From the NCBI GenBank assembly GCA_965235115.1, contig OZ249436.1, forward strand, positions 36,148,001-36,212,000: DNA of 64,000 nt, written 5' to 3'. Below the pieces are notes generated by a model. That model was given only the letters and a program-made list of their open reading frames with translations. It was not told where the DNA came from and did not search any database. Made by a program: the position numbers and the translations under genes. This DNA comes from Laetmonice hystrix (taxonomy: Eukaryota). Positions 11,801 to 56,477 of the stretch are shown one piece after another. Position 1 is the stretch's first letter. Each line of letters starts with the position of its first letter.

Positions 11801-14800
11801 AAGAACATCGAATACGGCCATCCAACGATTCCCTGTGTGATCACTCGAATTTAAATCAACGTCAGGTATTTCAATTACGTACTGAACGAAAATACAAATT
11901 GTGACAAGGTAAATTGGGGTCTTGATGTTTTATTATAAACAAATTGTATGGAACCAAAAAAGCAAAGATTAATTTGTCATTTCGGACTTTGCGAAAGTTA
12001 CTAACTATTCTACCGGTTCCAGTGCCATTTCTGTGTTTATATTTGAGTGGATTTCCACGTGAGTGAGAGTCTTTTTTGGACAGCCCACTTTTTTATATTA
12101 TGTCGGTGGGTGTGTGGGTGTGTTTTTGTGGACAGTCCACTTTTTTATATTATGTCGGTGGGTGTGTGGGTGTGTTTTTGTGGACAGTCCACTTTTTTAT
12201 ATTATGTCGGTGGGTGTGTGGGTGTGTTTTTGTGGACAGTCCACTTTTTTATATTATGTCGGTGGGTGTGTGGGTGTGTTTTTGTGGACAGTCCACTTTT
12301 TTATATTATGTCGGTGGGTGTGTGGGTGTGTTTTTTGTGGACAGTCCACTTTTTTATATTATGTCGGTGGGTGTGTGGGTGTGGGTGTTTTTTTTTTTTG
12401 GGGGGGGGGGGGGGGTTAAAGTACCTATATAAGTTGAAGACTTTAGCTGCATGCTTACTGAAGGATGTTATTGTATATTGACCTTATGACAGCTGATGAC
12501 GCTGCAGGAATACTCACTGTCGGTGACACTGAAGACGGCAGCATGGACACCACACGGTCGGCCTCTTCAAGACGTTGGACATTGGATGAATGGCAGGTTG
12601 AGCCTCCACAATGTCCTCTTCCCTAGCGCTAGGTACGGCCTGAATGGACGTCACTTCAAGGTGTTGACAATAGAGGTGTGTAAAATATTTCACGTCTCTG
12701 CATCGGGGCCGCATTTAATCAATCTGTACTTCCTAATCCAATGTGTCCCGATTGTCATCGTTTCAGTGGCCTCCTTTTGTAATGAAGGACGAACACGTAA
12801 ACATCACTTCCTTTTCTGGTTTTTGTATGACCGCATTGGAACTTTTGTCGAAGACCCTCAACTTCAGGTAAGTATGAGATAACTGTTTAATCGAATCCTC
12901 CTTGTACTTATGCCTATATTTCCAGTTTTGCAGAAGAATTCCATCCGATCCTTGGAAACGCGTCTCTTGCCCTTTTTTTCAGCTACACGATCAAGGCGGT
13001 CCCTGACGGTCAGTTTGGAGGCAAACTGGCCAATGGTAGCTGGACGGGATTACTGGGACAGCTAACCTCGAAGGTAATATTTGCTCTTACTACCCCTATT
13101 ACCTCTTACTATGCTATTATTTTGAAATTCCAAAAAATTCTAAGTTAATTTTGAAAAGTGAATTTATGCATATAGGCCTACCCATGGAATATTAAAAGAA
13201 TGGGGGGGGGGGGGAGGAGGGGGTGTGAATTCTGGTAACACTACCTTTTATTTTAGGCACTCCTCGATTCTATTCTTAGGTCATGCACTGAATGTGACTC
13301 AATGTTTAAAGTGCCTTGTTTTACATTATTAGAAGGCCGACATGGTGGTAGCATCATTGACAGTGTCGTACGACAGAGAGTCGATGATTGACTTCGTCAA
13401 GGATTACTACGTTGACTATATCACTGTCCTTTACAGGCGGCCAGACAACCAACTCGAACATATTTCTCTCATCACCAAGTCACTTCGGTAATCTCAATGT
13501 GGAATGAAATAACATAATTTGTTAGAAAGAAATGGTTTCTTATCGAGATTGAAAAAGATTGTTGTTTTGAGGGAATGAAATATAATATATTTCTCTCAAT
13601 CTACACCTCTTTAGTGGCGCAGGGTATCGAGTACTTCGGTCATTCTGCGATTATATATAGTATAGATTTATTTAATTTGTTTAAAGGTCATCATAATTTT
13701 AAAAGGATGATCTATTGATAAATCTCGTAACCGTTACTTTTTTCGTGGATGAAAGCAAATGAAGTAAGACGGAATACACCGAGCTGTTAATCGTTATTAT
13801 ATAGCCCACCACCTATTGGCTGTATTGTAGGTGGGAGGTGTGGTTGGGCGTCGGAATATTCGTGCTCGTGGCAGGAATCAGTCTCAGCTTTGTCTCACGT
13901 CTGCGGGGATCTACTAAAGTTCAAGTCTCCCCTAACGACAGCGGAGTACCTAAAGCTGCATCCCCAGTTTGTCGAGGTTGTCGACCAAAGATCACGGCTG
14001 GGGCTTTGGTTTCTCAGAGTGATAGAAGTCTGGCACACCTTCCAACAGGGATCTGGTTTTCTTTCGGGGCCATTCTGCACCAAGGTGTGAAAATATTTGA
14101 TAGTGTCTGCTGGTGGTATTTATGCAATGTGGTAATCGTATGCTTTTCACATGGAAGAGGGAGGGCCGTATATCTTCATCTTTAAACAATCTGTAAGTTG
14201 ACTGAAAATAGTAATGTCGATTTGCTTAAGCAAGTACCAGGAGGTGTTAATTTCAGTGTCCAATTAAAAATCCCCGGGGACAGTACCCCCTTGCCTAGTC
14301 AGTCGTCTCAACAACAATTTGACACTTGGTGGAATTTTGTGTTGCTACATGGCGTAAGCTCTACCGCAACCGTTGTCAGCGTAGATCTACAGTTTTTGAG
14401 TGTCGAGTGCCATCTGTAATAGAAACATCCTCAGTATACATCACGAACACACAGGCGGATGACGAGTGTTTGTTTTATGTCAGGTAGTGAAGTGGTGCCT
14501 GTCGGTCAACCCGGACGATGCATCTTCTCCTTCTGGTTTCTCTTCTCCATGGTGATCGGAGCGACGTATAGCGGCAACCTGATCGCCTTTCTCACTGTTG
14601 ACAAGTCCAACCCTCCTTTTAGGACTCTGAATGAACTTTGTCATCAAAACCAATACATGATCGGAACGCTTGGGGGATCGATCTATAGTGACATGCTCCA
14701 GGTGAGGGAACAGGCTAATATTACTAAAACATGCAATAAAGAAATTCAGAGAACACTGTGGACCGGTATCAAATTATCTAGGGGAAGTCCGACCTCTAAC

Positions 14801-15655
14801 GTTAAAGGTCTCATCATAGGCATATTTTACACTACACGCCGTCCATATTCCAAAATTTCCACTGTCTTCCACTGGCTAAGAAATACTTTGGTCCATCTTC
14901 CAATAATTTGCAGTACTCCACCAGCGCCACCTACCAATGTTTGTGGGAAAAGATCCAGGCGTCTGTTGAGATTGGACTCCGCGTGACCAGCACCAACCAT
15001 ACAGAACATGCTGAATGGGTTCGTGCCGGCGGCTATGCGTATGTGGTAGACGAAGTGGCCAGCAAAAATGAGATTCTCAAGGACCAGGAGCTAGCCATCT
15101 TGGGCGAGGCCGTCTCGACTTCACCATACGCTATAGGCCTTCAAAATAATTCTGCCTACAGAGAAGCGTTTTCAGATGCGTACGTTTACTTCGTGCAATT
15201 CAGTAGGCCTTTAAGGGCTTAGTATAAAATAATGCAGCATATAGGCTAAGTCTAGCGAAAGAGGTATAGATAGGCCTACGACAGCTTGGCAGAGGATGCT
15301 ACAGTATTCACTTCTCTGAATAGAGGGCCAAGTCTTCGCAAGGCCAGTCCATCTTATACCAAGCTGACCTCCCCCCCCCAAAAAAAGGACCCAGCTTATT
15401 TATGTATCCGATTTTTTATCTAATCACCCGACTTTTCCTTCAAGTGTCCAGAACATGAGAGATACGGGCCTTCTACACAAGTGGCAGACCGACATGTACC
15501 CAGCGTATGTCGGGAAGAGAAGCTCGACACCCAGCCGTGCCATCTCTATCGCCATCATTCACATGGAAGGATTGTTTCTAGCGGCGTCCGTCCTGGTCGT
15601 CTTGGCCGGGTTTATTCTCCTTGCAGAGCGACTTCATCACCGACCTGTCCCATGA
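8828..15655 (+). CDS. Divergent ionotropic glutamate receptor / IR-like gene B (complete, ~13 exons)
   Basis: Exons 8828-8930 (signal peptide MKERVVLYELCLSTFLWIVLL..), 9968-10102, 10480-10713, 10977-11164, 11345-11512, ~12508-12675, 12767-12867 (WPPFVM..GFC), 12983-13073 (DGQFGG..NGSWTGLLGQL), 13333-13487 (ADMVVASLTVSYDRESMIDF), 13831-14084 (M1; pore IWFSFGAILHQG), 14484-14701 (M3 ATYSGNLIAFLT), 14914-15179, 15445-15655 (MRDTGLLHKW, M4, stop). All phases are consistent. Confidence 0.9.
12072..12388. repeat. Minisatellite, 52-bp unit x6 (intron of gene B)
   Basis: GGACAG recurs at 12078, 12130, 12182, 12234, 12286 and 12339. Confidence 0.95.
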
Positions 15656-18446
15656 TTGTAGCGGAAATCCCTGATCAGGGTACTGACGACTCCGTAGGGG
15701 TGGACAAACAATAAGGTCTAGTGCATAGCCAGGAAATAGAAATAACGCACAGCTTGATCAGGGGCATGCATGCCCGAGAAAGTTTCTCTGACGTGCCTCA
15801 CGTGGTCACGGGCCTGCTTAGGCCTATAGTACGATACATTGTATATGATATAATTTAATGTATAATTAAAGCAACCACTCAAGATTACGCAAGACCTGTA
15901 TCTATATATCGTATGGAGCCGCCCACATCAGCTATTGACTGGAGTTCTGCATCGTAGCTTTGGATATAGGCTAGTCTATAATAGTAGGCCTAAAGGCCTG
16001 TCCTGTCGTATCCATCCTTTAAGAGTTGTGCACCTTTTAGGAGTTCCGGTTCCACCAAACCTTATTATCACGCAGCAGTAAAGCATGGCAAACCCCATCA
16101 AGAGTGTGTCTGGTTGTCGATGATGAATTGATGGATTACGCTACTAATTCGTACATTACCTGAAATACAAACAGGAAAGACAACATTGGCGACATGTCGC
16201 CTTGGACACTTGCTCCGTAACATCTGCCTGGATTTAAATTAGGGGACTGATTGGAGGTTCTACAGCTGTGTTGAGCTGAGGATTCGGGAATCATTCTCTG
16301 CGTGCCACCTGCCACCTTGTGAGTACTGTTTTGTTTGTGATCGTGCCTAGAAAGGTAGCGGTTTTGGGAGGAAGATGGCTGCTGCTGCTTGTCATAACCC
16401 TCACCGTGCATTGCCACCGTTTGACTGTACTGGGGATGCCTGGGGGGTATCCCGCAGGTGAACAGACTGGTTGGATGAGTTTGAGTGCTATGCAGATGCT
16501 CTGAGACATTTGCACCGTGACACTTTTGAACATCGCACTAATTGCAAGGCCTCATTAAGATGACACTTGGGCCTGAAGGATGTAAGATCTACAGCATTCT
16601 CGATACTGGTGGGCCAGCATATTACGATACGGCCACCAATGCTTTGAGTAGCCACTTCAAAATGAAGACAAATAAGAGGTTCATGAGAGCATTGTTACGT
16701 GATATGGCGCAAGGGCTCGACGAGTCAATAGCAGAGTATGTCGTCTGCCTGATGAAGGCATCGGAAGGGTGTGAGTTCGGCGACGAAGTAAACTCCCACA
16801 TAGTTGACCAGGTGGTTTTGACATGCACTAATGGGACTCTCTGTGGGAAGTTCCTGGAGAGGGGGGGGGGTGAACTTGACCTCACTGTGATGCAATATAC
16901 CCACGTCAGTCAAGAGCCAGGCCAGCCGTATGCCTGCTGCTGTGGACAGCACTGTAAATCGAGTAAGTCGGGGTCCATGTCACCGAGATCGACAGAGAGA
17001 TAATACCCGGAAACCGGAGGATGGAGGGTGTAGTCGCTGTGGATCCCATAATCATGATGCATCTTACCACAAATGCCCAGTGATCGGACAGAAGTGAAAT
17101 TAGTGCGGAAAACTGACCACTTCGTCAACAAATGCAGGTCTACAGGCCAAGCAGATGGAAGAAACTTCCCATGTCACCGAGGGAAACGATAGAAGAAAAC
17201 CGCCCATTCGAAGTGTTGAATGCACGGCTTTCGACAGCCAGAAAACAGAGCGAGATCCTGCTTGTTCGGCAGCTGCATGGCTATGATCTGCCTAGCGTTT
17301 ATTTTACAGTATATATTAAAGTATAGTGGTCGGACTGCCGGCAGTCAGTTCCTCCCTTCTTCAGATGGCGATGCTAGAATTTAATTGGCGTTATCTGCCA
17401 CGCCGCCTCTCCAGAGATCAGGATAAGCCGGCCTGGCAAGGAGTACACCTGGCGTCTGGACATAGAGTACATTTCTAGAACCAACTCTACACATCAATAT
17501 TAGTTGTGAATAAATAAAAAATGTTACAATAAAGATACATAATAAATACGTCAACATCCCGCTATATTTTCTACAATCTGCAAGAAGGTAGAGGCCAAAT
17601 CAAAGAACTTCTTGAACAGGATATCATTGATCCAGTCAATGGACTGATGCCATGGCTCAGCCCAGTGAATGTCATGAAGCCAAGTGGGGAGATACGTCTA
17701 TGCATAGATATGCGCCGTGCGTCACCCCATTCTAACATTTGACGAGTCCCTACAGGATATGTCGCAGAGTCGTGTATTCTCAAAACTCGACCTAAAATGG
17801 GGTTACCATCAGCTGGAGCTCAAGAGACATCACAGCGTTTGTGGTACACTGTGGGCTGTATCGTTATAAACGCCCAGTTTCCGGCATAAACGCGGCACCA
17901 GAAATTTATCAGTGGGACATTTATCGTCTCCTATTGGGGATTTCCAATGCTGTCAACATCTCAGATGACATCCTAATCCATTGGAAGGACCACGACACAG
18001 CTCTCTGTTAGGTACTTGATAGGATTCGAGATGCAGGGATGACACTAAACAAGGATAAATGCAAGTTTGGTGTGGACAAGGTCACTTTCTGGGCCCACGA
18101 GTTGTTCAGTGACGGGATTGATCTTAGCAAAAGCAAGGTAAAAGCCACCCCAGAGATGAGATTGAGGTTCGCAGTTTCCTCAGACTCGCTGAGTTTTGTC
18201 GAGCCTTTATACCTAATTTTGAGTCGGTCGCCAAACCTCTGTATCAGTTGACACACAAAGGTCAGGAGTTTGTCTTCGGCAAGGCCCAACAAGAGGCTTT
18301 CAAGAGGATTAAGGGAAGTATCAGCAACCCCAAGACGTTAGGGTACTTCAGCCTGGGTGACAAGACACAAGTGATTGCTGACGCGAGCCCCCATGGGCTT
18401 GGGGCTGTACTGGGATGCATGTGTGTGTTATCAGGGATGCAAGCAT

Positions 18447-19767
18447 CCCTGATAACACACACACGTTGGTACAACTTTGGGCCGACGTCAGCAGCTACGT
18501 TGGGCCAACATCAGATGCCAACATTGGACCAACGTCATTTTGCTCATCGGACCCATGTTGGGCCACCAGATAGGCAAACGTTGAAACAGGCCATTGGCCC
18601 AGCATCAGACCAATGTGTGTACAAACGTTAAGCCAACGTCAGATGCCCGACGTTGGACCAACATTTTGCTCATTGGGCCCACGTTGGGCCAACAGTTGGG
18701 CCAACGTTGAACCAGCCAATTGGCCCAACGTCAGACCAATGTGTTTACAAACGTTGAGCCAACGTCTAATACCAACGCTGGACCAAAGTCAGATGCCCGA
18801 CGTTGGACCAATGACATGTTGCTTATTGGTCCCACGCTGGGCCACCTTTTGGGCCAAAGTTGAACCAGCCCATTGGCCCAACATCAGACCAACATGCTTA
18901 CAAACATAGAGCCATCTTCTAATACCAACGCTGGGCCAACGTCAGATGCCCGACGTTGGACCGACGACATTGGGCCCCGAGTTGGGCCACCAGTTAGGCC
19001 AACGTGTGGCACGACCTTCCTCCAACCCGAGCCAATTTAAATAGACTCCCAAATAAAATCCTGGCTCAGGCAGAATCATTGCGTGGGTACGCTATAGTAT
19101 CTCCTGTGCCAGTTAAGCACTGACGCATAACACCCAAACCCTGTCCTCACTATTGTTGTTTCCCATCGGAAATCCAAATTGGTCTTTTCTTTATTGGGTT
19201 GTTTAAAAACAAAATATAATCTCTACGTCCCTATCTTGTTCTTTTCTCACTCAAAAAAAAATAAAGCGTAATTTTACAGAATGAATAGCTGTTCTTGTAT
19301 TCGTGGGAATAACTTGAAGTCGCTAAAAGCTCACCTGGACTGTGTTTGAGACTGTCTAGTTAATCTTACTGATAACAGCGCCACCTAGCGCCTGCTAGGT
19401 AAAGAAGAATTCCAATGTTGGGACAACGTGGGTGTTCCAACTGGGTTCCAACAAAGAGGGTGGCGACAGTGTTGACTAATTACCAACGTTGGGCCAACAT
19501 GGATGTTCAAACCGGGTTCCAACAAAGAGGGTGACAACAGTACTGACTAAATGCCAACATTGGGTCAACTTGGTTGATCCAACAGGGTTCCAACAAAAAG
19601 GCTGTCGACAGTGCTGAATAAATACCAACATTGGGCCAACATGGATGTTCCAACCGGGTTCCAACAAAGAGGGTGGCGACAGTACTGACTAAATTCCAAC
19701 ATTAGGTCGACTTGGGTGTTCCAACCGGGTTCCAACAAAGAGGTTGTCGACAACGTCGGGCCAACGT
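18447..19767. mobile_element. Non-autonomous CACTA/EnSpm-like element nested in Gypsy pol
   Basis: CCC terminus (CCCTGATAACACAC) and two blocks of subterminal ACGTTGGGCCAAC-type repeats (18464-19005, 19411-19767) around a unique core; right terminus missing. Superfamily is inferred. Confidence 0.55.
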
Positions 19768-20887
19768 AGTAGTGAATGGAAGGCTGCTGGTAGTAACCAG
19801 CAGCCTTCCATTCACTCCTATGTTAACTTAACGATCTGGTTATTAACTAGCCTAAACAGCAGCCTTCCATTCACTCCTATGTTAACTTAACGATCTGGTT
19901 ATTAACCAGTCTTTAGTGAGACGGGCCATGAAATCGACCACAGCAGCAAGGACTTGTGAGGCCCTTTGTGAAATCTTTGCTAGGTTTGGCAACCCTCCCA
20001 CCATTAAGACTGAAGGCCCTCAATTCACCTCAGCTACGTTCAGTCAGTTTGTGAGGGGGGAGGGATTGCAGCATCATAAAGTCACACCGAGACATGCCCA
20101 GGCAAATGGGGAAGTAGAAAGACAGAATCAGTCCCTGAAAAAGAGGCTGCGTATTGCCCATTCCCAAGGAGCCGGATGGAAGGAAGCGCTTCGTAATTAT
20201 GTTTTAAAGCAGTATCGGGCCACACCCCACTCAACAACGGGAAAGTCACCAAGATGTTGTTTGGGTTCGACGTACGAACCAAAATGCCTTGGGGATCACT
20301 GGGGAGTTTGCCAACGACTTGGAAGTGCGCGACCGAGATGGCAAGGTAAAAGGCAAGGCGAAATTGTATGCTGATCAAAGGCGCAATGCTGCAGTCTCTA
20401 ACGTTGCACGAGGTGACCAAGTCCTTCTGAAACGCAATAACAAACTGGAAACTCCAATTCTCCCAGAGCCATATCACGTTGTGGCTAGATCAGGGAACCA
20501 GGTGACAGTGGAGTCACCTGCAGGGGTCAGGTATGACCGCAACACAACCCATTATGCGGTACGTCACTGAGACGTCGGATGCCGATGTTGACACCACCCC
20601 TCCAAAGCGTCTGGAACCTGCGGCTCCTCCAAAGTCACAGGAGTCAAAGTCATATTCTAGTTACTGCCGTTTTGGTAGGACACTAGATTAAGTGGAGGTT
20701 CCCATAGACAGCTTAAAACTTGTTGGCTGTGTAGTTGACGCCAAGCCTATAAGTGACATTTAGCTAAAGTTGCTTACAGTTTGAAGAGTTAAGACACGAG
20801 ACAGTATCGAATCCTAGTCACTGACTAAGTATGCCTATAAAGCAGGACTGCTAAGTCTTGGAATCCCTATGTAGGCCTATCCGTTCT

Positions 20888-22241: not shown

Positions 22242-23411
22242 GTAAGTAGAGCGACCTGATATTTCCATAAAGTCCATTCTTCCAAATCTGGCGATATAAA
22301 TAAGGCATGCACATAGTTGATATTTTGCTAACTATGTTTATATTGGAGCAAATTTGGCAAGCATTGCCACGGCACTGGCACTGACTTGACAGGCGAGTTT
22401 TGACACGCCAGCATGTGGTCGGATCAAGTTTCTATCACAACTTTTAGTGTGAACAGAATGGGGTTATGAGCTCCAGAAATATGTGATGACCCTGTGTCTT
22501 AAACGCATATGATTTGGTCGATTTGTAAACACATTATCAGAAAGTACTGAAACAGCAATCGTTAAATTTGGCGGGCAAGAATGATTGTAAATTTATTCGA
22601 CCTCTGTCTCTGATCTGACTTCGGGATGACAGCGGGGCTGCACGGTCTGTTGACGCCCCCCCCCCCGCCCCCCTTCTCCCCGGTCAGTCGCCCGGCACCA
22701 CAGCCAGGACTAGCTGGCACAGTCCGAGACTCAAAATTCCATATGTATCTGTTTAATGTGTATTGCAGGGATCAGGCTGGGTTTTGTGTGTCAGAGAATA
22801 TCTCATTATTTTGAAAGCAATGAGATTTTAAAACTTTAAATGAGACTGAAACCGTCACGGAGAGTGAGACCGAGAGGAAAATTTATGGGATTGTTGTTTT
22901 GATGAAAGAATATCTCGATATCGCGGGCCAATCTCGGCCTTATGTACTCACTTCTGTTTTAAAAAAAAAGCTTAAAAAGCCGAAAAAGTTGTTGGCGTAT
23001 TTTTTCTTGGAAAGTTTGGCTGTTCAAATGATTCGAATTTGCTTTTGTTGTTGTTGTGATGAGCAACTGTCTATAAACTTTATGGGCCTGACAGTAACTG
23101 ATGCTAGTGATGGTATAACAGACTTTGCCAGTGATTGTGTAAGAAAAAATTTTGAGGTGTGAAGATGACTGAACCCCACTGATGCCTGGTGCAACTTGGG
23201 TGTGGCAACAATGATGATTCAAGCTAGTTCATGTGTCACTGGCCAGTGAAAAATTGCACTAGAAAATGCATCTATAGTAGAGTCATATTTCCTTTACTTA
23301 AATTTAATGGTCCAAGAATGAAAATTATTGACAAAAAATTTGATCTTTTTTGATAATAATCTTAATCTATTTGGAATGCATGCTTTGCAATAGTAGGTAC
23401 TCTTTATAGAC

Positions 23412-25225
23412 CTGTATTTTTCTTTTGAAATGCACGGGCATCAGGGGTAACCCAATTACTTTGACAATGTCCCTAAAGAGAAAAGTTGTATAGTCCTCTA
23501 CAGGAATCGAACCCAGACCCTAAGATTACTGCACCCATTCGCATAGCATAAGGTGTCGACATCCATGCCCGCTAGGCCACCGCCACTCCCCTAAAAAAAG
23601 GAGCTTTGGTGGTCGAGCAGGACAATGGACCCTCCCCCCTACACACATCTTTTTTAAATGAGACGGAATCCATATTTTCCTAGTTAGAGCTACACATGAT
23701 TTCTACCGAACATTGACTGTTAAGGTAATCCTGGCACTGGCGTAGACTGTATTTTTCTTTTGAAATGCACGGGCATCAGGGGTAACCCAATTACTTTGAC
23801 AATGTCCCTAAAGAGAAAAGTTGTATAGTCCTCTACAGGAATCGAACCCAGACCCTAAGATTACTGCACCCATTCGCATAGCATAAGGTGTCAACATCCA
23901 TGCCCGCTAGGCCACCGCCACTCCCCTAAAAAAAGGAGCTTTGGTGGTCGAGCAGGACAATGGACCCTCCCCCCTACACACATCTTTTTTAAATGAGACG
24001 GAATCCATATTTTCCTAGTTAGAGCTACACATGATTTCTACCGAACATTGACTGTTAAGGTAATCCTGGCACTGGCGTAGACTGTATTTTTCTTTTGAAA
24101 TGCACGGGCATCAGGGGTAACCCAATTACTTTGACAATGTCCCTAAAGAGAAAAGTTGTATAGTCCTCTACAGGAATCGAACCCAGACCCTAAGATTACT
24201 GCACCCATTCGCATAGCATAAGGTGTCGACATCCATGCCCGCTAGGCCACCGCCACTCCCCTAAAAAAAGGAGCTTTGGTGGTCGAGCAGGACAATGGAC
24301 CCTCCCCCCTACACACATCTTTTTTAAATGAGACGGAATCCATATTTTCCTAGTTAGAGCTACACATGATTTCTACCGAACATTGACTGTTAAGGTAATC
24401 CTGGCACTGGCGTAGACTGTATTTTTCTTTTGAAATGCACGGGCATCAGGGGTAACCCAATTACTTTGACAATGTCCCTAAAGAGAAAAGTTGTATAGTC
24501 CTCTACAGGAATCGAACCCAGACCCTAAGATTACTGCACCCATTCGCATAGCATAAGGTGTCGACATCCATGCCCGCTAGGCCACCGCCACTCCCCTAAA
24601 AAAAGGAGCTTTGGTGGTCGAGCAGGACAATGGACCCTCCCCCCTACACACATCTTTTTTAAATGAGACGGAATCCATATTTTCCTAGTTAGAGCTACAC
24701 ATGATTTCTACCGAACATTGACTGTTAAGGTAATCCTGGCACTGGCGTAGACTGTATTTTTCTTTTGAAATGCACGGGCATCAGGGGTAACCCAATTACT
24801 TTGACAATGTCCCTAAAGAGAAAAGTTGTATAGTCCTCTACAGGAATCGAACCCAGACCCTAAGATTACTGCACCCATTCGCATAGCATAAGGTGTCGAC
24901 ATCCATGCCCGCTAGGCCACCGCCACTCCCCTAAAAAAAGGAGCTTTGGTGGTCGAGCAGGACAATGGACCCTCCCCCCTACACACATCTTTTTTAAATG
25001 AGACGGAATCCATATTTTCCTAGTTAGAGCTACACATGATTTCTACCGAACATTGACTGTTAAGGTAATCCTGGCACTGGCGTAGACTGTATTTTTCTTT
25101 TGAAATGCACGGGCATCAGGGGTAACCCAATTACTTTGACAATGTCCCTAAAGAGAAAAGTTGTATAGTCCTCTACAGGAATCGAACCCAGACCCTAAGA
25201 TTACTGCACCCATTCGCATAGCATA
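23412..25225. repeat. Tandem array, 335-bp unit x5.4, with a tRNA-like Pol III promoter on the minus strand
   Basis: Units start at 23412, 23747, 24082, 24417, 24752 and 25087 (partial). Copies are nearly identical (one substitution noticed at ~23893). Minus strand carries A-box TGGCCTAGCGGG and B-box GGGTTCGATTCC. Confidence 0.95.
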
Positions 25226-31600: not shown

Positions 31601-34600
31601 CCAGAAGATAAGTAAGATCAATTTTTAAAGATATAGAAAAAAATGTTTTTTCATGTCAGAAATAAGAAAATGATTATTGATTGAATTTTCTGATAAATTA
31701 TTTGTGGATTCGAATAGATGTAATCAGGAGCCTAGAATTACCCAGTAGTTTAACCTGTTTTTTTTCTCCTTGTCCTTAGATGTTGAACATTACTTCCTGG
31801 AGGATAACCAGAAACTGCACAAGGTAGCACCTCCAGGCTGGAAGGACCCAGGCAAAGGTCGAATAGCGGCAAACTTCACCATGTTCCTCCGCATCAAGTA
31901 TTATGTGGATAGTATTGCAACATTGAGGTAAGATATATGGCAGAGTAAACTGTTCACCATAGCTCGGATTTTTAATTGTATTTTATTTTAAGTTTTGACA
32001 TTTTTATTTATTTTAAGTTTTGACATGATATGAGTGTTAAAGCAAGTGTTCTTTGTTCTGGCAGACATCCACTGTCGCGTCACCTCTACTATCTCCAGTT
32101 ACGTCGTGACGTTCTCGAGGAGAAATGTCATGTCACAGAAGACCAGGCCATGAGCCTTGCTGCCATCGCGCTGCAGGCCGAGTATGACGACTACGATGCA
32201 AACGTTCACACTCGAACTTACTTTCAGCCTGATAATTACATCCCACAGCGTGTCATGCGACACGTGGGCTCAACATATGTCCGAGAGAACCTGCCCCCAC
32301 TGCACATGGAGCAGAGAGGGATTAGACAGGAGGAAGCTGAGTGGAAGTACATGAGGGAGCTTCAGAATGTGGCCGAGTATGGCATCCATTTCTACAAGGT
32401 TTTCAGGGTGAGTCAGCAATCCTCTTTGAGAAAGACGACTTCATTTACACAGCCGTAGGATGACCCGATCATATGTTGAAGGGAAAGTGAGGGTGTAAAC
32501 TCTACTGGTGCCCTGTCAAGAGTGTCCTTATAGGAATATCCATGGATAGCAGTTTGTGAATACTGACATATAGGTAATAAAGTATATCTGATGCTCTCTA
32601 CAATATCTAGTCTTATGGGTCCAAAAATCCTAAAGTAGAAGTTGTAAGGTAGAAGTTGTATGACATAGAAATGGTATGTAATATTGAGTGTTCTGTGTGA
32701 TTTTATTTGGCAGAGTAAGAAGAACACAGCAGTGCCATTGTGGATCGGGATAGGAATTCATGGAGTTCTGGTGGCTGAACAACGTGGCGAGCACCGTGAA
32801 CCACAACATCGTCATCCATGGCATTTCACACAGAAGATTTCGTTCAATCGCCGTAGATTCAGTATCACACCCAAGACAAATGTTGGGCCCCTCAAACTTA
32901 CCAAACTCAACTACTTCACTGACAGTCATCGCAAGTGAGTAATCAGTTTTTCAGATGGATTTATTTATGATAATCCAATTGTGCAAATCATAATGATAAT
33001 ATGATTTCATTTATAATATTTGAAAGAAATGTTCATGCAAAATCAAACCACTCTGAGGTAAATTAAATCCTGGTGTCTGTTGCTTATTTTGAAGGAGTTG
33101 AATTACAATATGTAGTGGACAGTTGGAAATCATAGTTGATATATTTTAATCCAGGGGGCGCTACCTACTTCAGTTTTGCACAACCCAACATCACTTCCAG
33201 ATGAGGATGAAAACCAGAATTAACGTGACAGATATGTTTGACCAAGGTACATTTTTGTACTTCTTTTTTTTAATTTAGAAACATATAATTGATGTAGATT
33301 GTCTCTCTTTATATGCAGTCTATTTATCTTTGGTGTCATAGCCAAATTTAGAAATGAATGTTTTGTGCATTGTTAAGACTTGCATACTATGAGTCTGAGA
33401 GTGAAACCACAGTTTTCCGGTGAACTGGCATTGAAAGTTATTCCCCAGTTTCATTTTGATATAAATGTTGTGACTGACAGAGTATCCAATGGAAGCTGGT
33501 GGGAACTCGGGACGTTTTGAACCAGGAGATTTCGACCCAGAGTTGGACATTGGTGGTCGTGACAACAATGCACCTTTCAGTGATGGTAGCTTTGATGAGT
33601 ACTCTGACGATGATCAACAGGTATGTTACAGCATTGTTAAGTTAGTATATTGATATGGTGTATTAAGATGGTAAGAGCAGAAGGTATGTTTGCTCATTTT
33701 CCACTTTAGGACCATCTGTTGAAGACCTGATTATTCTGTTCATTTATATAACATGATACAAATCATGTTCAGAAAGACTGTCTCATCTGCAGGCAGTCAT
33801 TGGCGAAAAGAGGGACAGATGCAAATGATAGCAGTAAAACACTTAAGATGAACTTCCAGGTTTCTGTCTCACCTAGTTGTGTTAAAATTAGGTAAAGAGA
33901 ATCATACAGTAATTTAGTTTTATATGGAAAACTTGGGAAGTAAATGTCGTGTCACATTTGCATTCCACTGTACAGATGGTAAGAAAGAAGAGGTCTGTAA
34001 ACCGGTCTTTACTTGCCTCTTATATTTCAAACTGTATTATTTGAAAACCCATTTACTGTTGTTTTTTTCCATTATGCAGCTTATCTTGTGTGATGTTGAG
34101 GTTATCATATCCTAATCACTGGCATTCTTTGATTTTAGTATTACTTAACTGAAAAACTGATGAACCTGATGTTCCAAAAATCACAATTTACTTTGAAGTG
34201 AATGCTGATCATAAAAAATTCAGCCATTTAAGAGTGCATTATTTTGAAAGGTTTTCTCTCAGTGCCAGCAGCCTTGTTTTGTTCCCACCTTTTTCAGCCT
34301 GATATTGTCAGCATAGTTTGAGTAAAACAGTTGTTTGTTAATTTTGAATTAGATAACACTGGTAGCCCATTAGTTTTGTGTCAAGCCACCTGTAGACTGG
34401 TGTGGTCATGAATTGTTTGTTTGGTGTGACAGATGGAGGAGCATCCCTACGAGAACATGAACAGGCCAGGTGGCCACCAACAAATAGTGCCCAAATCAAG
34501 GTCAGTTAAAAACCACACAGATTTCCGCATCTTTCCTTTTGTTTTTGGTCCACCTTTCTGTTTATGTAGCTTTGTGCAGATATGATCATGTCTGTACTGA

Positions 34601-40600: not shown

Positions 40601-43600
40601 GTGATGCTCATGTCATCTGTTTTGTTTTTCATTCGTAAACGCCCTCTGCTCAATCTTCAACTTCTGTGGTGTAAAATAAGCAGAATTCAGCAGCATTTAA
40701 CCTACAGTACAGTGTAACTAAATACTTAATGGTTGTAGGGCGTTGTGATTTCTATAATTTCTAAAATTGAAATTAGGCAGACAGGAAATTGTTAATTTGA
40801 GGGCAAACACAACGTTGGACAAGAGGTTGTCTTTATGTGACTTTACTAATAGAATAGGATTAGTGTTTTTGCTTTGGTTATTGCTTCCTGCAGTTGACTG
40901 GATTGTGTCCTGGTCTTGAATGTATGAAACATTGCTGGCATGTGCAACCTGGCTGTCTAGTCAAGTGATGCATTGCGTCATCTGTGAGCTGAAATTATAC
41001 ATGATGGTTATCAGTTACACGAGAGCCTTGCATGAAGTCGTAGTCAGTTATCAGACATTTGGCTGATAAACTGACTTACAGTTACCTTTAACTGTGTTTG
41101 GTGCCAATTTATATAAACAGAACAGTGCTTTGCAAAGCTGCGTGGATAATAAAAGTTAACGGCTAGCTATCCAAAGGGTTCGTCTGAAGGGTCGCCCTTA
41201 TGATAATTCCTGGGCCTGTGCTGTTAAGTTACCAATACAACGCGATTGTGTTTTTGTTATGATTGGTAATATTATCTTTGTTATCATGTATGAATGAGAT
41301 TAATTGAACGATCTGATATTATCGGGTATATAGTATTTGTATAGCAATGAAAACAATATTGCTTGAATTTTAATTAATAAATGTAAGGTGAGACTAACAT
41401 GGAAGTACATGTAATGATGATGGATAGCAGTATAAAACAAAGACAGGCCGGTGAGACGTGAGTAGTCATCCGACAACAATAACAAAACACTGGTTTGAGA
41501 GGGTGACGATCTCTGTTTCAGATACACTTAGGATGATTCAGCTGACGAAGGACATCAGTGGGCTGGGATTCAGTGTTATAGGGGGTAGAAACGTCCACCC
41601 TGACCCCCTGCGCTGTGTCACTCGGGTGAAGAAGGTCTTCCCCATTGGTGCTGCGGCCCAGAATGGTCAGCTGCAGGTCGGCGACGTCATTCTGGAGGTG
41701 AACGAGAAACCAACCAAAGGATTGTCATCTCATGTAAGTATACGCATTATAGACTTGGCCAGGCAGGGCTGGGAAGTAATTCTGTTGGAAAATTTGGACA
41801 GCTGAGATTAATGAAGTCTCATAAATCCAGGGATTATCATAAATTACCCATACATGCTATTTTAAAGCATTTTATTTATTTATTTACAGCTATTGTATTA
41901 AGAATAATTTACTTACGTGGAATTTTAAAAACTTTCTCGGCAGAGCCTTGATAATGGAGTAAAGCTCTGACGTAGCAGTGATGATGCAGCAGTACGGTAT
42001 ATAGAATATGTTTACCTCTGATTACAGGACACTGTGAACTTATTACGTACTGCACCACCTGAGGTCAGCTTACTCATATGCCGACCACTGGAGGGCACGC
42101 TGCCACCAATATCACAGTTGGTAAGATGAAAAGCCATTTTGAATATTGTATATTGCCTAACTTTCTCAAATCTCAATGAGGGTTAACTGCTTCAGCTAAT
42201 TGCCTAGTTTAATAAAATTTACTGTATTTAAGGTGTGCCCAAATAAGGGAAATAAAAAATAATTGTTTTATATGTTCATCTCATTGCAGTTGAATGAAAT
42301 AGACTCATCTCATGACTCATCTTTACGTGAGACTCCGATGTCTCAAATCACTAGTCCACCAATAACCCCCGGTATCGGAGAAAGGGGTAGGAATCCAGAT
42401 GGTGCTTCCCCCTCAGATACACCCCGTACCCCACCAGTCCAAAATAAAACCCCTACACCCCTTCGGGATTCAATAACAAAGACACACCATCACGATCCTA
42501 ACCAGCCAAGTGCCTTAGTTGATAGAGTAACTCCATCAGTAGACCACTGCACTGAACCCGAGTATAGTGATGACGAGGAGTCAAACATTGGCGACTCGGC
42601 ATCAGTCATCAGACTTCAGCCAACCCGTCATGCTCAAAGTGACAGCAGAGATCATAATGGCAGCCAAGAAGAGTTGAACTGTTCACTGGACAGTACAACT
42701 GGAACCGGGTGTAACAGACAGGAACAGCTGTCTAAGGTGAGGCAGGCTCCTTCAGAGGGCACAGACAGTGATAAAGTAGTAGACGTACGGTTAGACAAGT
42801 CACCGTCAGAAAACAGACATCCCAGCAATCACTACATGGCCCCGCAGGATGAACTCTGTGTAAATGGTGACACAGAGGAGGGCTCTGAGGAGGAAGAGGA
42901 GGAGGAGGAGGGACAAGGTGAAGATGACCGTGAAGAGGTTGTGGTGGAACTGGAGGAAGAGGAGGAAGAGGAGAATCTGAAACCTGGGGTGAGATATGAT
43001 TTATGATTACTTTAGATATTGCATTTAAATTCATTCGGCCAATGAAACATTTGATTTCATGTACCTGATAAAGATGTAATGCCCACTGGAGCATGAAACC
43101 CTACCAGATTCATTAACCAGTAATAACAACACCATTATATTCCAACTGCAGGAGTTTGATAACAACACCATTATATTCTGACTGCAGGAGTTTGATAACA
43201 CCATTATATTCCGACTGCAGGAGTTTGATAACAACACCATTATATTCCGACTGCAGGAGTTTGATAACAACACCATTATATTCCGACTGCAGGAGTTTGA
43301 TAACAACGCCATTATATTCCAACTGCAGGAGTTTGATAACAACACCATTATATTCCAACTGCAGGAGTTTGATAACAACACCATTATATTCCAACTGCAG
43401 GAGTTTGATAACAATACCATTATATTCCAACTGCAGGAGTTTGATAACAACGCCATTATATTCCAACTGCAGGAGTTTGATAACAACGCCATTATATTCC
43501 AACTGCAGGAGTTTGATAACAATACCATTATATTCCAACTGCAGGAGTTTGATAACAATACCATTATATTCCAACTGCAGGAGTTTGATAACAACGCCAT

Positions 43601-46600
43601 TATATTCCAACTGCAGGAGTTTGATAACAACACCATTATATTCCAACTGCAGGAGTTTGATAACAACACCATTATATTCCAACTGCAGGAGTTTGATAAC
43701 AATACCATTATATTCCAACTGCAGGAGTTTGATAACAACGCCATTATATTCCAACTGCAGGAGTTTGATAACAATACCATTATATTCCAATTGCAGGAGT
43801 TTGATAACAACACCATTATATTCCGACTGCAGGAGTTTGATAATTAACAACACCATTATATTCCAACTGCAGAAGTTTGATAACAACACCATTATATTCC
43901 GACTGCAGGAGTTTGATAATAAACAACACCATTATATTCCGACTGCAGAAGTTTGATAACAATACCATTATATTCCAACTGCAGGAGTTTGATGTTACCA
44001 TGACAAAGGGTGATAAGGGACTGGGCTTCACAGTGGCCGGTGGTCAGAAGACTGGCTTCTTCTACGTGAAGAGTATCCTGTATAACCCTGCCCTGTCTGA
44101 CGGCCGCATCCAGGAAGGTGACAGACTCATCCAGGTACCTGTTGAAATGTTGGTCTGGTAATAAATAGAAAAGGTGAAAATAATTATAATATGGAATTAT
44201 AAGTTGTAATATATGATTTTATGGAGTTAAGAAGATTTTCCATTGGGGGTTACATTATGAACCTCCAGGGTATGTGCCCCCAGATTAGAAGATTGAATTA
44301 TAATCTTATAAATTATAAGATTAAAGAAATAGAAAAGTGAACTCCAGATAGTGAATTATATATTAAGTGTGGCATTGTTTCCTGACTAGGTGGAAGAGCA
44401 GGACATGACAGATCTGAATCACAAGGAAGCTGTCAACTATCTTCGTCTGACTCCAAATACTGTCACCATCCGATTCTTCCGTCCAGTCCGGGTCGTCACT
44501 CCAACAGATGACCAAAACCACAAGACTGTCAAAAAGGTAATGTGCCCAGATTATAAGGGTTGCTTTTTAAAGCTCTCTTTTTTAATGTCTCAGAAAGTGC
44601 AAATCTGAAAATCATTGAGATTGCTAAGCCAGTGCCCTGGCCTACCGGTAATTGCAGTACAATATACTTCTTTTGATTACCGGTACATTCTCAAATATTT
44701 AGCAAGGGTGTGCCCAAGTCAGGCACCAACGAGCAGGCCCGCCTAGCACTGATTTTAGCTGCCCAGCACAAAACTAAAAGGGTTCAAGTGCTGCCGGGCA
44801 GGAAAATTTATAAGGCCCATCATCTGATAAATATGTGTACTTAATAACTTTTCATACCTTCTCTTGTTTATTCCATCATAAGACGCTAACCACTACGGGG
44901 GTAGGAAGATTTTATAAATTTCCCAACTCCAATTTCTTCATGAAAAATACTACTGCCGGCACTAAATTTTTCCTGGGCACATCCCTGATCTAGTTATGAC
45001 TTTAAAAAAATTTTCAGGTAAAATTTGCCCAAAACAACACAAGCCAAATGCCAAAGGTAACTCTTCAGGAAGCCAGAAAGGTACATTACTTAGAATGCAA
45101 ACTAGGCACCACAGGTCACTGCATGGAAATCTTTGAGAACTTGCCTCACAAAAACTATTTTTCTGATGCCGTCTATGTACACTTAGTCTCTTAGCTATGT
45201 TCACTGACCTGACCTTCATCTCTCAGTTTCTCATATGTAAACAGAGATGCAAAGGGATTGGTTATATAAATTCCGGAGTCGCTTGTCCTGTTGAAAGAGG
45301 ACTTTTTTCTTGTTATCTCAGATTCTACTGAATCCAGGATTCTCAGAATCATAGTGGCTAACCTTCCTCTTGATGAAAGGTGAATGTTATTGATGTTTTA
45401 GGTGTATTTTGGCTTTTGTTGATGTTTCATGAACAATAAACCAGGACCAAGGTTGTGAATATGCTCAGTTTGATGAAGAAATGATTGTGACGGAATGTCT
45501 GGCCCGATCAAGGTCCAGGGCCTGCAGCAGGACTTTCGAAAATAGCAGTTAGCTGTACATTCGGCTAGTAGGAATTAATCTAAAGCTAGGGAATGTGGTG
45601 TTATGAATCGTGCCCTTACTTCCAGACATGTGGTCATGTTTTTTCTAAAATAAAAGTAGGGAAAAAAACTGACCCTGAGATTTCATTGTTTGAACAGAAC
45701 AATAGTTCAGAACCTGAAGGCAGTGATTGCCCCCCTGCCGACCCCCCAGCAACAGCGCCGCCTGGTGGACAGGATGGGGGCAACTACCGATCTGTACGTA
45801 ACATGGTGCAAACACTGGAGGAGAGTCAGAAACTTATCCGACCTCACACGTACGGGCGCCGCCTGGAGGATAGCGAGGATGAGGACGATCTGGAGGTACT
45901 GGAGGAGAGGCACAGGAGCGGGATGCTGACCCCAACACATGACCTGGAAGTCCCCACTGTCGTCACCACTCCAGAGAAACCCCACAGAGGGCCAGAGAAC
46001 GGCAGTGAAGGTCGGATATCACAGGCCTCCTCCTGGGGGAACCTGACCCTTCCGATGCCAGAGGATGAGCACAACGAGGAGGTGAGACAGATTACTGGAG
46101 CACCTGCTACCCCGGTCCCACAGGAGGTGAGTCTGCTCAGTGAACGTATCACAGACAGACTACAGTGCAGTGATAGTAAGATCTCGTAACAAGTGTACAG
46201 TCAAGAATTATTTTAATCTGCCTTTCTTTGAATGAACATCTTCTGCTCTGAAAGTTTAAATGCTCATATTAGGAAGGTGGAGTAGAGGCAAGACACAATT
46301 AATGCCTTCATTAGATGATTCCTTCTGTATAATAGACTTTGAGAGTTAGAGTTACCAGGATGTCAAAAAAAACCATGTCTACAAAGTTTGATTTGTTAGC
46401 CAATTGGTTGGTATTGTTTTATTTTGCAGGCTGGAATAGTAAGAGTGAACCTACATAAAAAACCCAATGAGAGCTATGGTTTTAGTCTCATCCAGGGAGA
46501 GAAAGGGTCGGCCTCTGCCCTTTACATTCGCTCGCTGACACCAGCAGGTGCTGCTGCCGATAAAACCCAAATCCGGGTCGGCGACCGACTTCTCCAGGTG

Positions 46601-49600
46601 AATGGGGAGTCTGTGATTGGGGTGCCACACAACAAGGCAGTCGCTCTCATCAAGAAATCAACAGAGCATCTGACCATCACTCTGTCCAGGTAAGGACGTT
46701 AACCATGCAAGTGTAAAGAAATAAAAGATTTCTTTGTATAGGGGAAAACATTATGGCCTCCAATGAGTAAACTCTTTGGCTTAACTCAAGAACTTTGATC
46801 CAGTTGCTGACTTTAATTATAAGTACTTGCATCATCTAATGTCAAGATGACACTGTTCCCGGTCACTTTCAGACCCCCCTCAAGATCTGGATCACGCATG
46901 TCTCGAGGCTCGGTGGTGACACCTACTGGATCTCCGCCTACAGTTCCCGAAACTGACTCGTGGTCACGAACAGTCTCCAGAGCTGACACTGAGAGTGACT
47001 TCGACTCGGCTGCTCTGGATGACGATGGTCATGTGGTGCTCTCCAGTAACCATCGTCACCCAGGAGAAACGTGGAGTGGCCACACGACCCCGACAGGCCG
47101 GCTTGATGATGAAGACGATGATCCGGATACGTTTGATTCAGTGGAGTATAAGGAAGGATACCAAGGGTTCAATGGTCCAACAACGCCAACACGGACACGG
47201 GGGTCCGGGGCTGAGTCGGAGGATGATTCTGATGGAGACGATCACCATGGCAACAGGCATCACAAACCACCACACAAACCACCACGTGAGTCTGTTAAAA
47301 CAATTGATCATCTAAACTTCCAGTCGTAATCCTTACATTTGATCTCTTTACTAGGGACCCATTTTGGTAAATTTATCTGTACCTCTTCGGTATCTTCACC
47401 TTGTATTAAAACGGGACCATTTTAAAATCACTTTTTATTCAAATCGGTTGGCCTGAATTGTTCTGGTCTGGGGACATCGCCAGACAGTTGTTCATTCCCC
47501 AGACCAGACTTGTCAACACACTCACAAAGTACCAGGGGTAAGCTAAGGAAACAATTCACCATTCAGGTAGTGTCCCAGCAGAGCCCAGTGAGCTTCCTGC
47601 TATTACTAATTAGAGAGATTTTAGGAGATGGAATGGATCAGATGACTCTATTGTTACAGGCCGTGACCTGTCCCGGGTACCAGCTGAACTCAGTGACTCG
47701 TGGTTGGATACCCAACCCCTGGTGATCGTGCCTCAAGAGTCGGTGCACTACACCGGGCGTCAACTGTCAGCCTCCCTCAAACTGCTCACTGCCAGGTTGG
47801 AGCAGGACGACCCAGTGGAGGAATACAAGGTACGACCAACCAACCCGGTCAACATAGCTTATGTGTTGATTGATATATTTATTCCGAGCTTTTCCTCTTG
47901 TATGAGAAATTGTGCATAAAAATGTTACACTGGCATTGTGTACAGGTCTAATTTAGTATGTTTTTCTTTCAGTTTTTTGGATATTTTTGCTTGACAGTGA
48001 GGGTCTCAATGTAATGTCTTCTTTTAACAGACTTTACGTCATGCCAAGTTGACAGATAATTGTAATGATGCCCGGCGGCCAGAAAATAAAACCAAGAACC
48101 GATACCGGAACGTCCTACCATGTAAGGAACTCTATCACTTACCCTTAGTATCAGACTTAATCGTATGGGCTTAATCTTAGGGAGGGTTTTAAAAATTAAA
48201 TATTTCAGCCATTTTAGTTTGTTTTCAAATTTAGCTTGATTTTAGCATAGTTTTTTTTATGATGAATGCTGGCATCATCAACTGACTGGAATGGTGTTTT
48301 GAAATTGGTCCAGACTTCTACAAACCCAGATTGATCCAGTGATTAGATTCAGGCAAACTTGAGTGCATGGAGTTTGTCCTTTGTACAGATGACTCCACCC
48401 GTGTCCATCTGAGTGGTGAGGAGAGTTATATCAATGCGTCCCACATACGGTACAGGGTGGGCAAGGACTGCCTACATTACATAGCCTGTCAGGGACCGCT
48501 ACCACACACTACGGAGGACTTCTGGAGGATGGTGTGGGAAACGAAAGCAGACACCATTGCCATGCTTACACTAGACGTGGAAGCTGGGAAGGTGAAATGT
48601 CATCGATACTGGCCAGATTCAACTCAGTCATCATTTACTGTCTGCGACAGGTTTGTGTTTTATTTTCACAGTTTAGCATTTGATAATTATTATGATAATT
48701 CTGGGAGGTTGTGGAAGGCCCAAGTTTTTTTGTACAGATCCAAAAATTAATCAAGATAGATAGTAATGTTTCGTTGCAGTTATGCAAAATGAAGCTCTGA
48801 CATCGAATCACTTAATTCAGTAGCAGATTGGTGAGTCATGACACCCCTGCCCCCGCGTTAATTTTTCATTTCCAAGATTTCCCCTTTGGACCGTCTCTCC
48901 TTTCCAAAATCCTGGACCCGCCCCTGTAAGTTTGGAGTGTCTAAATGAGACTGATTGTTCCGGTGAACAGGTTGGAGGTGAGTCTGGTAAAGGTGGAGAG
49001 ATTGGAGAACTTTGATATCCATTCCGTGAGGTTGGAGGACGTAGAGACTGGAGATAGCCAACTGGTGACACATGTCAACTTCACCACCTGGCCCGACCAT
49101 GGCAGCCCAGACACTGCCCTCCCACTGCTCCAGGTATCCGTCTCTTTTACCAACTTTGAATTCTGTAAAAGGGAATTATGGTGTTTGAACACTAAGGCTA
49201 AAGGGGGAAAGTATGTGTCATTGTACCTTGACATACATAGTGTTTGTTAACCGAAGGCTGTAAAACTCCTGAATGTCGTGTCCCATTTTGTTGCAGTACG
49301 TGAGGTTCCTTCACTTGGTTCACAACTCGGGGCCAATCGTTGTTCACTGTAGTGCAGGCATAGGCCGCACAGGGGCGCTCATCACAGTGGATATTGCACT
49401 GGCTCAGGTTGAGGCAGATCTCAAGTTTGATATCCAAAAGATTGTCGTGGATTTGCGGCGGCAAAGGCAAGGCATGATTCAAACTAAGGTAGGTATAGTA
49501 CAAATGAACTGTCTCTCTTTGGTCAGAGTTTTGGTCGATTTCTTGAGAACAGCTGTAGTTTTTAAAAATTACAAAGTTTAGCATTACCGCAACATTGATT

Positions 49601-55320: not shown

Positions 55321-55663
55321 AAAACATTGGTCGGTGTATACCTTGCCTCTTTTAAGCAATTTCTTTAGGGAAACAGGAAATACTAATAATATCCGTGCAC
55401 ATATGGAACTGACGTCTCAAGAATTTCGTAGTAGAATTCTTGTCAAAACGCGGGACTATCATGGCAGACTATATGAATTGACAAAAAGAGATTTTACCAT
55501 TTTTAGCACGGTCCGATTTGACCGCAGTCATGACCACCGACAGTGAGTGGTGCAGTGGCTTGTTCAGCGGGTTTCTCACGTTCGCAAGATCAGCTTCAAT
55601 TACGACTGACTCTTCTTCCTTTTTTTCCCGTGGCTCTGCGTATCCTTTACTTTGTTCTTTAAT

Positions 55664-56477
55664 GTATAATCACTAGGCTGAGGGTATCTGTATGATCACT
55701 AGGCTGAGGGTACCTGTATAATCACTAGGCTGAGGGTACCTGTATGGTACCTGTATGATCACTAGGCTGAGGGTACCTGTATAATCACTAGGCTGAGGGT
55801 ACCTGTATGATCACTAGGCTGAGGGTACCTGTATGATCACTAGACTGAGGGTACCTGTATGATCACTAGGCTGAGGGTACCTGTATGATCACTAGGCTGA
55901 GGGTACCTGTATGATCACTAGGCTGAGGGTACCTGTATGATCACTAGGCTGAGGGTACCTGTATGATCACTAGGCTGAGGGTACCTGTATGATCACTAGG
56001 CTGAGGGTACCTGTATGATCACTAGGCTGAGGGTACCTGTATAATCACTAGGCTGAGGGTACCTGTATGATCACTAGGCTGAGGGTACCTGTATGATCAC
56101 TAGGCTGGGAGTACCTGTATGATCACTAGGCTGAGGGTACCTGTATAATCACTAGGCTGAGGGTACCTGTACGATCACTAGGCTGAGGGTACCTGTAAAA
56201 TCACTAGGCTGAGGGTACCTGTATAATCACTAGGCTGAGGGTACCTGTATAATCACTAGGCTGAGGGTACCTGTATGATCACTAGGCTGAGGGTACCTGT
56301 ATGATCACTAGGCTGGGAGTACCTGTATGATCACTAGGCTGAGGGTACCTTTATGGTACCTATATGATCACTAGGCTGAGGGTACCTGTATGATCACTAG
56401 GCTGAGGGTACCTGTATGATCACTAGGCTGGGAGTACCTGTATGACTAGGCTGAGGGTACCTGTATGATCACTAGGC
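55664..56477. repeat. Minisatellite, 26-bp unit, ~30 copies
   Basis: Unit GTATGATCACTAGGCTGAGGGTACCT, with ATAATC, GGGAGT and short-duplication variants. Confidence 0.95.

Follow-up and report, generated by a model that had tools for sequence, protein, structure and literature searches.

A minisatellite of 24 units spanning the 3' splice site ahead of the PDZ4 exon in a PTPN13-like gene of Laetmonice hystrix

Within a window of 64,000 nucleotides from Laetmonice hystrix (contig OZ249436.1, positions 36,148,001 to 36,212,000, to which the numbering below is relative), one intron of a PTPN13-like gene ends in a tandem array that presents the spliceosome with 24 near-identical acceptors. The locus thus raises two questions, namely which of these acceptors is likely to be employed, and whether the array has any bearing on the output of the gene.

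The PTPN13-like gene and its fourth PDZ domain

The gene lies on the forward strand between positions 25640 and 49841, and its model contains 35 exons encoding an N-terminal KIND-like part, a FERM domain, five PDZ domains, and a PTP domain. The Pfam matches occur in the order FERM (FERM_M), five PDZ, and Y_phosphatase, and the ten-residue PTP-domain motif is present in the translation. Among 1.84 billion representative sequences, the top match to the FERM region is a PTPN13-like protein from Tubulanus polymorphus with 49% identity. The homologue from Branchiostoma floridae is 46% identical over the same domain. This domain order, the named homologues, and an alignment of the fourth PDZ domain bear out the preliminary description, in which the gene was identified as PTPN13 and the exon behind the array as that of PDZ4. 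In a tree of 19 rows, calculated by a quick method, the protein groups with those of a nemertean and a mollusc with an SH-aLRT value of 100, which places the animal among the spiralians and not with the lancelets. A protein word-index search, the index of which covers only sequences of 201 to 2000 residues, provided one match among 151 candidates. PTPN13, also referred to as PTP-BAS or FAP-1, carries a KIND domain at its N-terminus; the 58-residue piece encoded by the first exon, a single short piece scanned for KIND, gave no Pfam match.

The exon ahead of the array, delineated by positions 42290 and 42988 on the forward strand, is a 699-nt linker whose translation ends in ...ENLKPG. Its donor GT at 42989 scores 6.3, as compared to values of 3.5 to 11.6 across the 33 donors of the gene, and the break after 42988 is in phase 0. 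The authentic exon behind the array extends from 43985 to 44134 (forward strand, 150 nt) and encodes the first half of PDZ4, as judged by a Pfam PDZ match (E = 6e-07), the fourth PDZ domains of the homologues, and a conserved junction motif. Via acceptor 24 the protein junction reads LKPG/EFDV, which is similar to LKEG/EIEV in the nemertean Tubulanus and LQSG/EIEV in the lancelet Branchiostoma, both of which are without an insert. Indeed, no repeat-like insert is observed at this position in the 10 homologues compared, one row of which (P0036) is out of register. With acceptor 24, the 27 exons starting at 30656 join into 2,040 codons closed by a single terminal stop, the exons ahead of 30656 being outside this joint frame.

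Architecture of the array and its presence in public runs

The array spans positions 43123 to 43993 on the forward strand and was delineated by TRF, an acceptor scan, and public contigs. According to TRF it contains 24.1 copies of a 36-nt unit with 93% matches and a score of 1495, and as a repeat it exceeds chance by far. Each unit is composed of 27 intron bases, ending in CAG, followed by nine exon bases (GAGTTTGAT). A script scan of the array located 24 acceptors of the form CAG/GAG or CAG/AAG, with first exon bases running from 43152 to 43985; the unit does indeed straddle the end of the intron and the start of the PDZ4 exon, as was originally proposed. The 23 spacings between these acceptors are 36 nt in 20 cases, 33 nt in one (copy 3), and 40 nt in two (copies 21 and 23). 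Upstream of the array lies the unique 5' part of the intron (42989 to 43122, forward strand), which contains a branch-point-like TTAAC identified by motif match only. Without the array the intron would measure 163 nt, and the distances from the donor to the 24 acceptors range from 163 to 996 nt. Use of copies 1, 2, or 3 would produce introns of 163, 199, and 232 nt, respectively.

The units fall into 10 distinct strings with patterned variants (copy 1 having been cut longer than the others). The variant types are interspersed, and the array contains a 76-nt higher-order duplication between 43809 and 43960 on the forward strand, the halves of which are identical at 74 of 76 positions; both features are signs of minisatellite turnover. 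The duplication holds both of the CAG/AAG variants and both of the 4-nt insertions (43842 to 43845 and 43918 to 43921, one per half). The two insertions noted in the preliminary description are thus present, but as they lie within the duplicated block they probably do not represent separate events: a single slippage event was most likely copied along with its 76-nt block. The array as a whole may have originated from a short tandem duplication that straddled the acceptor by accident and then grew via slippage or unequal exchange, with the 33- and 40-nt units arising from slips in the AAT/AAC tract and one 76-nt block being recopied. That such an array straddles a splice site is unremarkable. 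When 36-nt seeds are placed on the array-collapsed gene, 1156 of 23,334 (5.0%) span an acceptor and approximately 10% span either type of junction; with wholly exonic seeds left out these values are 6.9% and 13.7%. The chance that a unit length is divisible by three is one in three.

Four public runs of one sample, possibly the source of the assembly itself, were compared over positions 43910 to 47900. In all three of the genome-scale runs (X1, X2, and X3) a unique contig starts exactly at 43964, which is where the first 31-mer takes in a non-repeat base. The contig depths for the unit and the flank, respectively, are 567 and 47.7 in X1, 328 and 28 in X2, and 675 and 42.2 in X3. The unit contigs are therefore at 12 to 16 times the flank depth, although depth is not a measure of copy number; in the assembled array, the most frequent 31-mers are each found 14 times. 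An assembly artefact is exceedingly improbable, given that the public contigs break at the array edge and that the units comprise 10 distinct, patterned strings. What speaks for it is that neither the precise number of copies nor the pair of insertions is confirmed by independent reads, all of the runs being from one sample. The repeat is accordingly present in the reads. No second allele length is seen in these contigs, which are of one sample and end at the array edge, and the preliminary label of a VNTR is thus unsupported.

The fourth run, X4, the kind of which is not on record, contains spliced contigs with at least one GT..AG joint. This joint connects the second PDZ4 exon (44390 to 44536, forward strand) with 45698, and two loose ends match neighboring exons, one that ends at 47285 and one that starts at 48031. 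The gene is thus transcribed beyond the array. Among the X4 contigs listed, none covers positions 43910 to 44445, which include the insertion at 43918 to 43921 and the exon behind the array, but such a hole proves nothing, and X4 therefore does not discriminate among the acceptors.

Reading frames and strengths of the 24 acceptors

The frame entered from acceptor 1 is closed by a TGA (43179 to 43181, forward strand), which arises from a point change in copy 2. From acceptors 2 through 20 translation runs into a TAA at 43845, and acceptors 21 and 22 lead to a frameshift with a stop at 43954. As argued in the preliminary description, the frame to PDZ4 and beyond is kept by acceptors 23 and 24 only: the former adds 12 residues in frame (43949 to 43984, forward strand), and the latter provides the native protein. 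The related claim that the 4-nt insertions disable copies 1 through 22 holds for acceptors 2 through 22, but not for acceptor 1, the frame of which has already ended in copy 2. A coding tandem repeat can be ruled out, for the frame is not open through the array into the exon (stops at 43179, 43845, and 43954). Premature stops well ahead of a last junction trigger nonsense-mediated decay, and those reached after copies 1 through 22 lie at least 180 nt ahead of the next junction.

Six substitution types are found in the units, and by eye they can be read as two synonymous, three missense, and one nonsense. All six spare the AG, the chance expectation for which is 0.69. From the sequence, the substitutions look unconstrained, and nothing in them points to selection for coding or to selection for or against decoy acceptors.

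The CAG is retained in 24 of 24 copies. On a matrix derived from the 32 other acceptors of the gene, the array acceptors fall between 6.2 and 9.0 as compared to -0.2 to 12.6 for those 32 sites under leave-one-out scoring, and 48 of 892 intronic AGs score 6.5 or higher. The matrix is crude in that it is built from 32 sites, one of which is misplaced by 2 nt (40340 for 40338), and lacks the exon at 33155. Over positions -20 to +3, 14 of the 23 upstream copies are identical to copy 24, eight score higher, and one scores lower. The branch-point consensus is YTRAY, and a match to this motif occurs 26 to 36 nt upstream in every copy, as judged by motif only. For copy 1 the match is the TTAAC that lies outside of the unit, 36 nt ahead of acceptor 1, and for copies 2 through 24 it is a TTGAT within the duplicated exon bases. 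Masking of the upstream copies by RNA structure was rejected as a candidate: predicted folding does not favor copy 24, whose AG is the most paired of the 24. Given that the copies are nearly equal and that folding is of no help, the choice of acceptor must presumably rest on context rather than on site strength.

Several further candidates were considered and set aside. The tandem AG three bases downstream is a poor competitor with scores of -1.9 to -0.4. In a recursive-splicing ratchet the acceptor AG is directly followed by a donor GT; all copies here read AG/GAG or AG/AAG, and there is no GT after the AG. Likewise, micro-exons or recursive splicing that would employ the GT inside the unit are rejected on the basis of its scores, -1.1 or 0.8, as compared to 3.5 to 11.6 for the real donors.

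Acceptor choice and comparison with known arrays

In light of these results, copy 24 probably dominates and the array is likely to be tolerated as a mirage minisatellite. The spliceosome would mainly select copy 24 through exon definition since only this copy leads directly into the complete 150-nt exon and lies closest to the downstream donor; the resulting exon measures 150 nt from copy 24 versus 983 nt from copy 1, with a median for the gene of 173 nt. Its branch point is probably borrowed, namely the TTGAT in the exon bases of the preceding copy. Rare products of copies 1 through 22 would meet premature stops and be removed by nonsense-mediated decay, leakage to copy 23 would yield a protein with 12 additional residues, and the array itself would have no selected role. 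Favoring such tolerance are the unbroken 2,040-codon frame and the homologue-like junction obtained via copy 24, the spliced contigs downstream, the unconstrained-looking units, and the 5% chance from the seed placements. Against the dominance of copy 24, sequence scores do not single it out, the introns to copies 1 through 3 are below a 250-nt limit, and copy 1 retains the original upstream context. This limit derives from human data, in which a switch from intron to exon definition is reported near 250 nt, with short upstream introns favoring upstream acceptors (PMC9225289). Some leakage may occur, the first three acceptors being less than 250 nt away from the donor.

Such leakage might be more than trivial. 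A sizeable share of the transcripts could pass via copies 1 through 3, copy 23, or exon skipping, and thereby lower the amount of full-length PTPN13 as an unselected by-product, perhaps scaling with array length. The equal strengths of the acceptors and the reported preference for upstream acceptors at short introns (PMC9225289) are in keeping with this, as are the low-level one-unit retention and the length-dependent skipping of the next exon described for the ABCA7 VNTR (PMC5954066). In that same report, however, one-unit retention is unchanged by VNTR size, amphioxus genes with mirages are reported to splice normally (PMC3087553, PMC3902484), and no acceptor-destroying change has spread within the Laetmonice array. 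On balance, substantial leakage is unlikely. It is improbable that copy number acts as a switch on splice-site pairing, with copies 1 through 3 via the short intron competing against copy 24 via the exon, thereby setting the ratio of full-length to decayed or phosphatase-less FERM-PDZ1-3 products. If true, this switch would turn an acceptor-side mirage into a heritable dosage dial and would provide a natural ladder of 24 steps on which a spiralian could be tested for intron as opposed to exon definition.

If copy 1 were dominant instead, this chromosome would make little functional PTPN13, a damaging state tolerated via the other allele or weak selection. Copy 1 does retain the 163-nt intron and its TTAAC, and the adjoining 699-nt exon would favor intron definition. 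Nonetheless, the 27 exons of the downstream model are free of stops and frameshifts, and spliced downstream transcripts are present. In addition, the unit depth of 12 to 16 times the flank is close to the 14-fold count of the top 31-mers, which suggests, if only weakly, that the array is present on more than one chromosome. A damaging allele is thus very unlikely. Highly improbable is a selected rheostat, in which the frameshifting insertions would have been retained so that mis-spliced products decay or lose the phosphatase, with copy number tuning either dosage or a scaffold-only isoform. It would agree with the stops ahead of PDZ4 from 22 of 24 acceptors and with a truncated product that would retain FERM and PDZ1-3. 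Yet all of the stops are explained by one duplicated slippage event and one point change, the units are without visible coding constraint, and the 10 homologues have no such insert. The earlier suggestion that the array tunes PTPN13 dosage, which starts from a low prior, is not supported: the insertions probably amount to one event, the units look unconstrained, and similar published arrays are reported either to leave splicing undisturbed or to favor the site next to the exon strongly. Nor is it refuted, in view of the preference for upstream acceptors at short introns in the human data.

The Adh3 mirage minisatellites of amphioxus were reportedly first described by Canestro et al. in 2002. 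On structural grounds the Laetmonice array would belong to this type, for its unit spans the exon-intron boundary, the splice signal is retained, and signs of turnover are evident. The repeat type has therefore already been described in amphioxus, and related repeats occur in human CBS, F7, and ABCA7. The amphioxus examples reported include Adh3, the globins BflGb6 and BflGb9, troponin C, and PGBD5 (PMC3087553, PMC3902484). In BflGb6 the 3' end of an intron and the start of an exon are repeated, and mirage units are given as 10-160 bp (PMC3087553); the array described here is likewise of the acceptor-side type, with a retained splice signal and a 36-nt unit inside that range. It differs in its spiralian host and in having 24 copies, as compared to three to six in BflGb6. 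RT-PCR suggests that splicing is not interfered with by mirages, and cluster length is said to vary between haplotypes (PMC3087553). Normal splicing and length instability are thus amphioxus results, whereas the present array is known from DNA sequence.

The human repeats offer further parallels. CBS 844ins68 also duplicates an intron/exon junction, but in two copies of 68 bp rather than 24 of 36 bp; its distal site is reported to be strongly favored, giving normal mRNA (PMC2630376, where the sites are worded as donors and a 3' splice site study is cited). The 37-bp unit of the F7 intron 7 VNTR spans a junction as well, although on the donor side and in five to nine copies, and only the site adjoining the intact exon is reportedly used even though the others are functional (PMC1557585). 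Less in keeping with a dominant copy 24, globin duplications in which the "proximal" copy is spliced are cited in the same paper, together with a study that reports the opposite. The ABCA7 intron 18 VNTR is a minisatellite that bears a splice site, with some 24 units in the reference and a range of 12-427; it is located on the donor side, and length variation is an ABCA7 finding. There, length is described as driving skipping of the next exon, with leakage to the adjacent unit producing a target for nonsense-mediated decay (PMC5954066). An effect of copy number on PTPN13, if true, would be the acceptor-side counterpart, but the present analysis yielded no evidence of one. Publications on this PTPN13 locus repeat were sought by title and abstract start, and none was found, most subscription journals lying outside of the search.

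The array adds one clear case, from beyond the lancelets, to a repeat type that has already been described, and it is a trap for gene annotation. Its near-identical acceptors straddle the approximate 250-nt boundary between intron and exon definition, and thus junction counts would reveal how an acceptor is chosen in this animal. Note that the cDNA continuation after the donor at 42988 differs among the acceptors: it reads GAGTTTGATGTT for copy 24, AAGTTTGAT for copies 21 or 23, and GAGTTTGATAA for the other copies.

Repeats within and near the PTPN13-like gene

The start codon of the PTPN13-like gene lies ∼400 nt past the end of a tandem repeat, positioned at 23407-25225, with a 335-nt unit present in 5.4 copies that match at 99%. 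By eye, a duplication of ∼22 nt in two copies (31980-32026) ends ∼40 nt before the acceptor of the FERM exon. The intron that follows the second PDZ4 exon harbors a high-copy interspersed repeat, extending from 44736 to 44989. In the contigs from one sample, the bin depth over this repeat reaches as high as 7,492 versus ∼50 in the flanks. Over the region delineated by 43964 to 47900, the contigs of this sample differ from the window by ∼1%, with ∼40 places carrying other letters and eight rows of small insertions or deletions.

A tandem array at 55663-56477

An additional tandem array, built from ∼31 copies of a 26-nt unit, extends from 55663 to 56477 and adjoins a minus-strand open frame at 55472-55669. 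When read on the minus strand, the unit contains CAG followed by GTACC, which corresponds to a donor-like or AG-GT motif. The array may represent a second splice-site array.

The ionotropic-receptor-like gene and a retroelement-like stretch

The plus-strand ionotropic-receptor-like gene is located at 10461-15650, with a Pfam Lig_chan match at 14423-14700. Within it lies an array of six copies of a 52-nt unit (12072-12383) that, as placed by eye, is intronic and spans no junction. Open frames on the minus strand at 987-2586 resemble, by eye, the N-terminal exons of this gene, and possibly belong to a divergent paralogue. The stretch from 16542 to 20567 contains broken open frames with a by-eye likeness to pieces of retroelement reverse transcriptase and integrase, and these frames are interrupted by tandem repeats.
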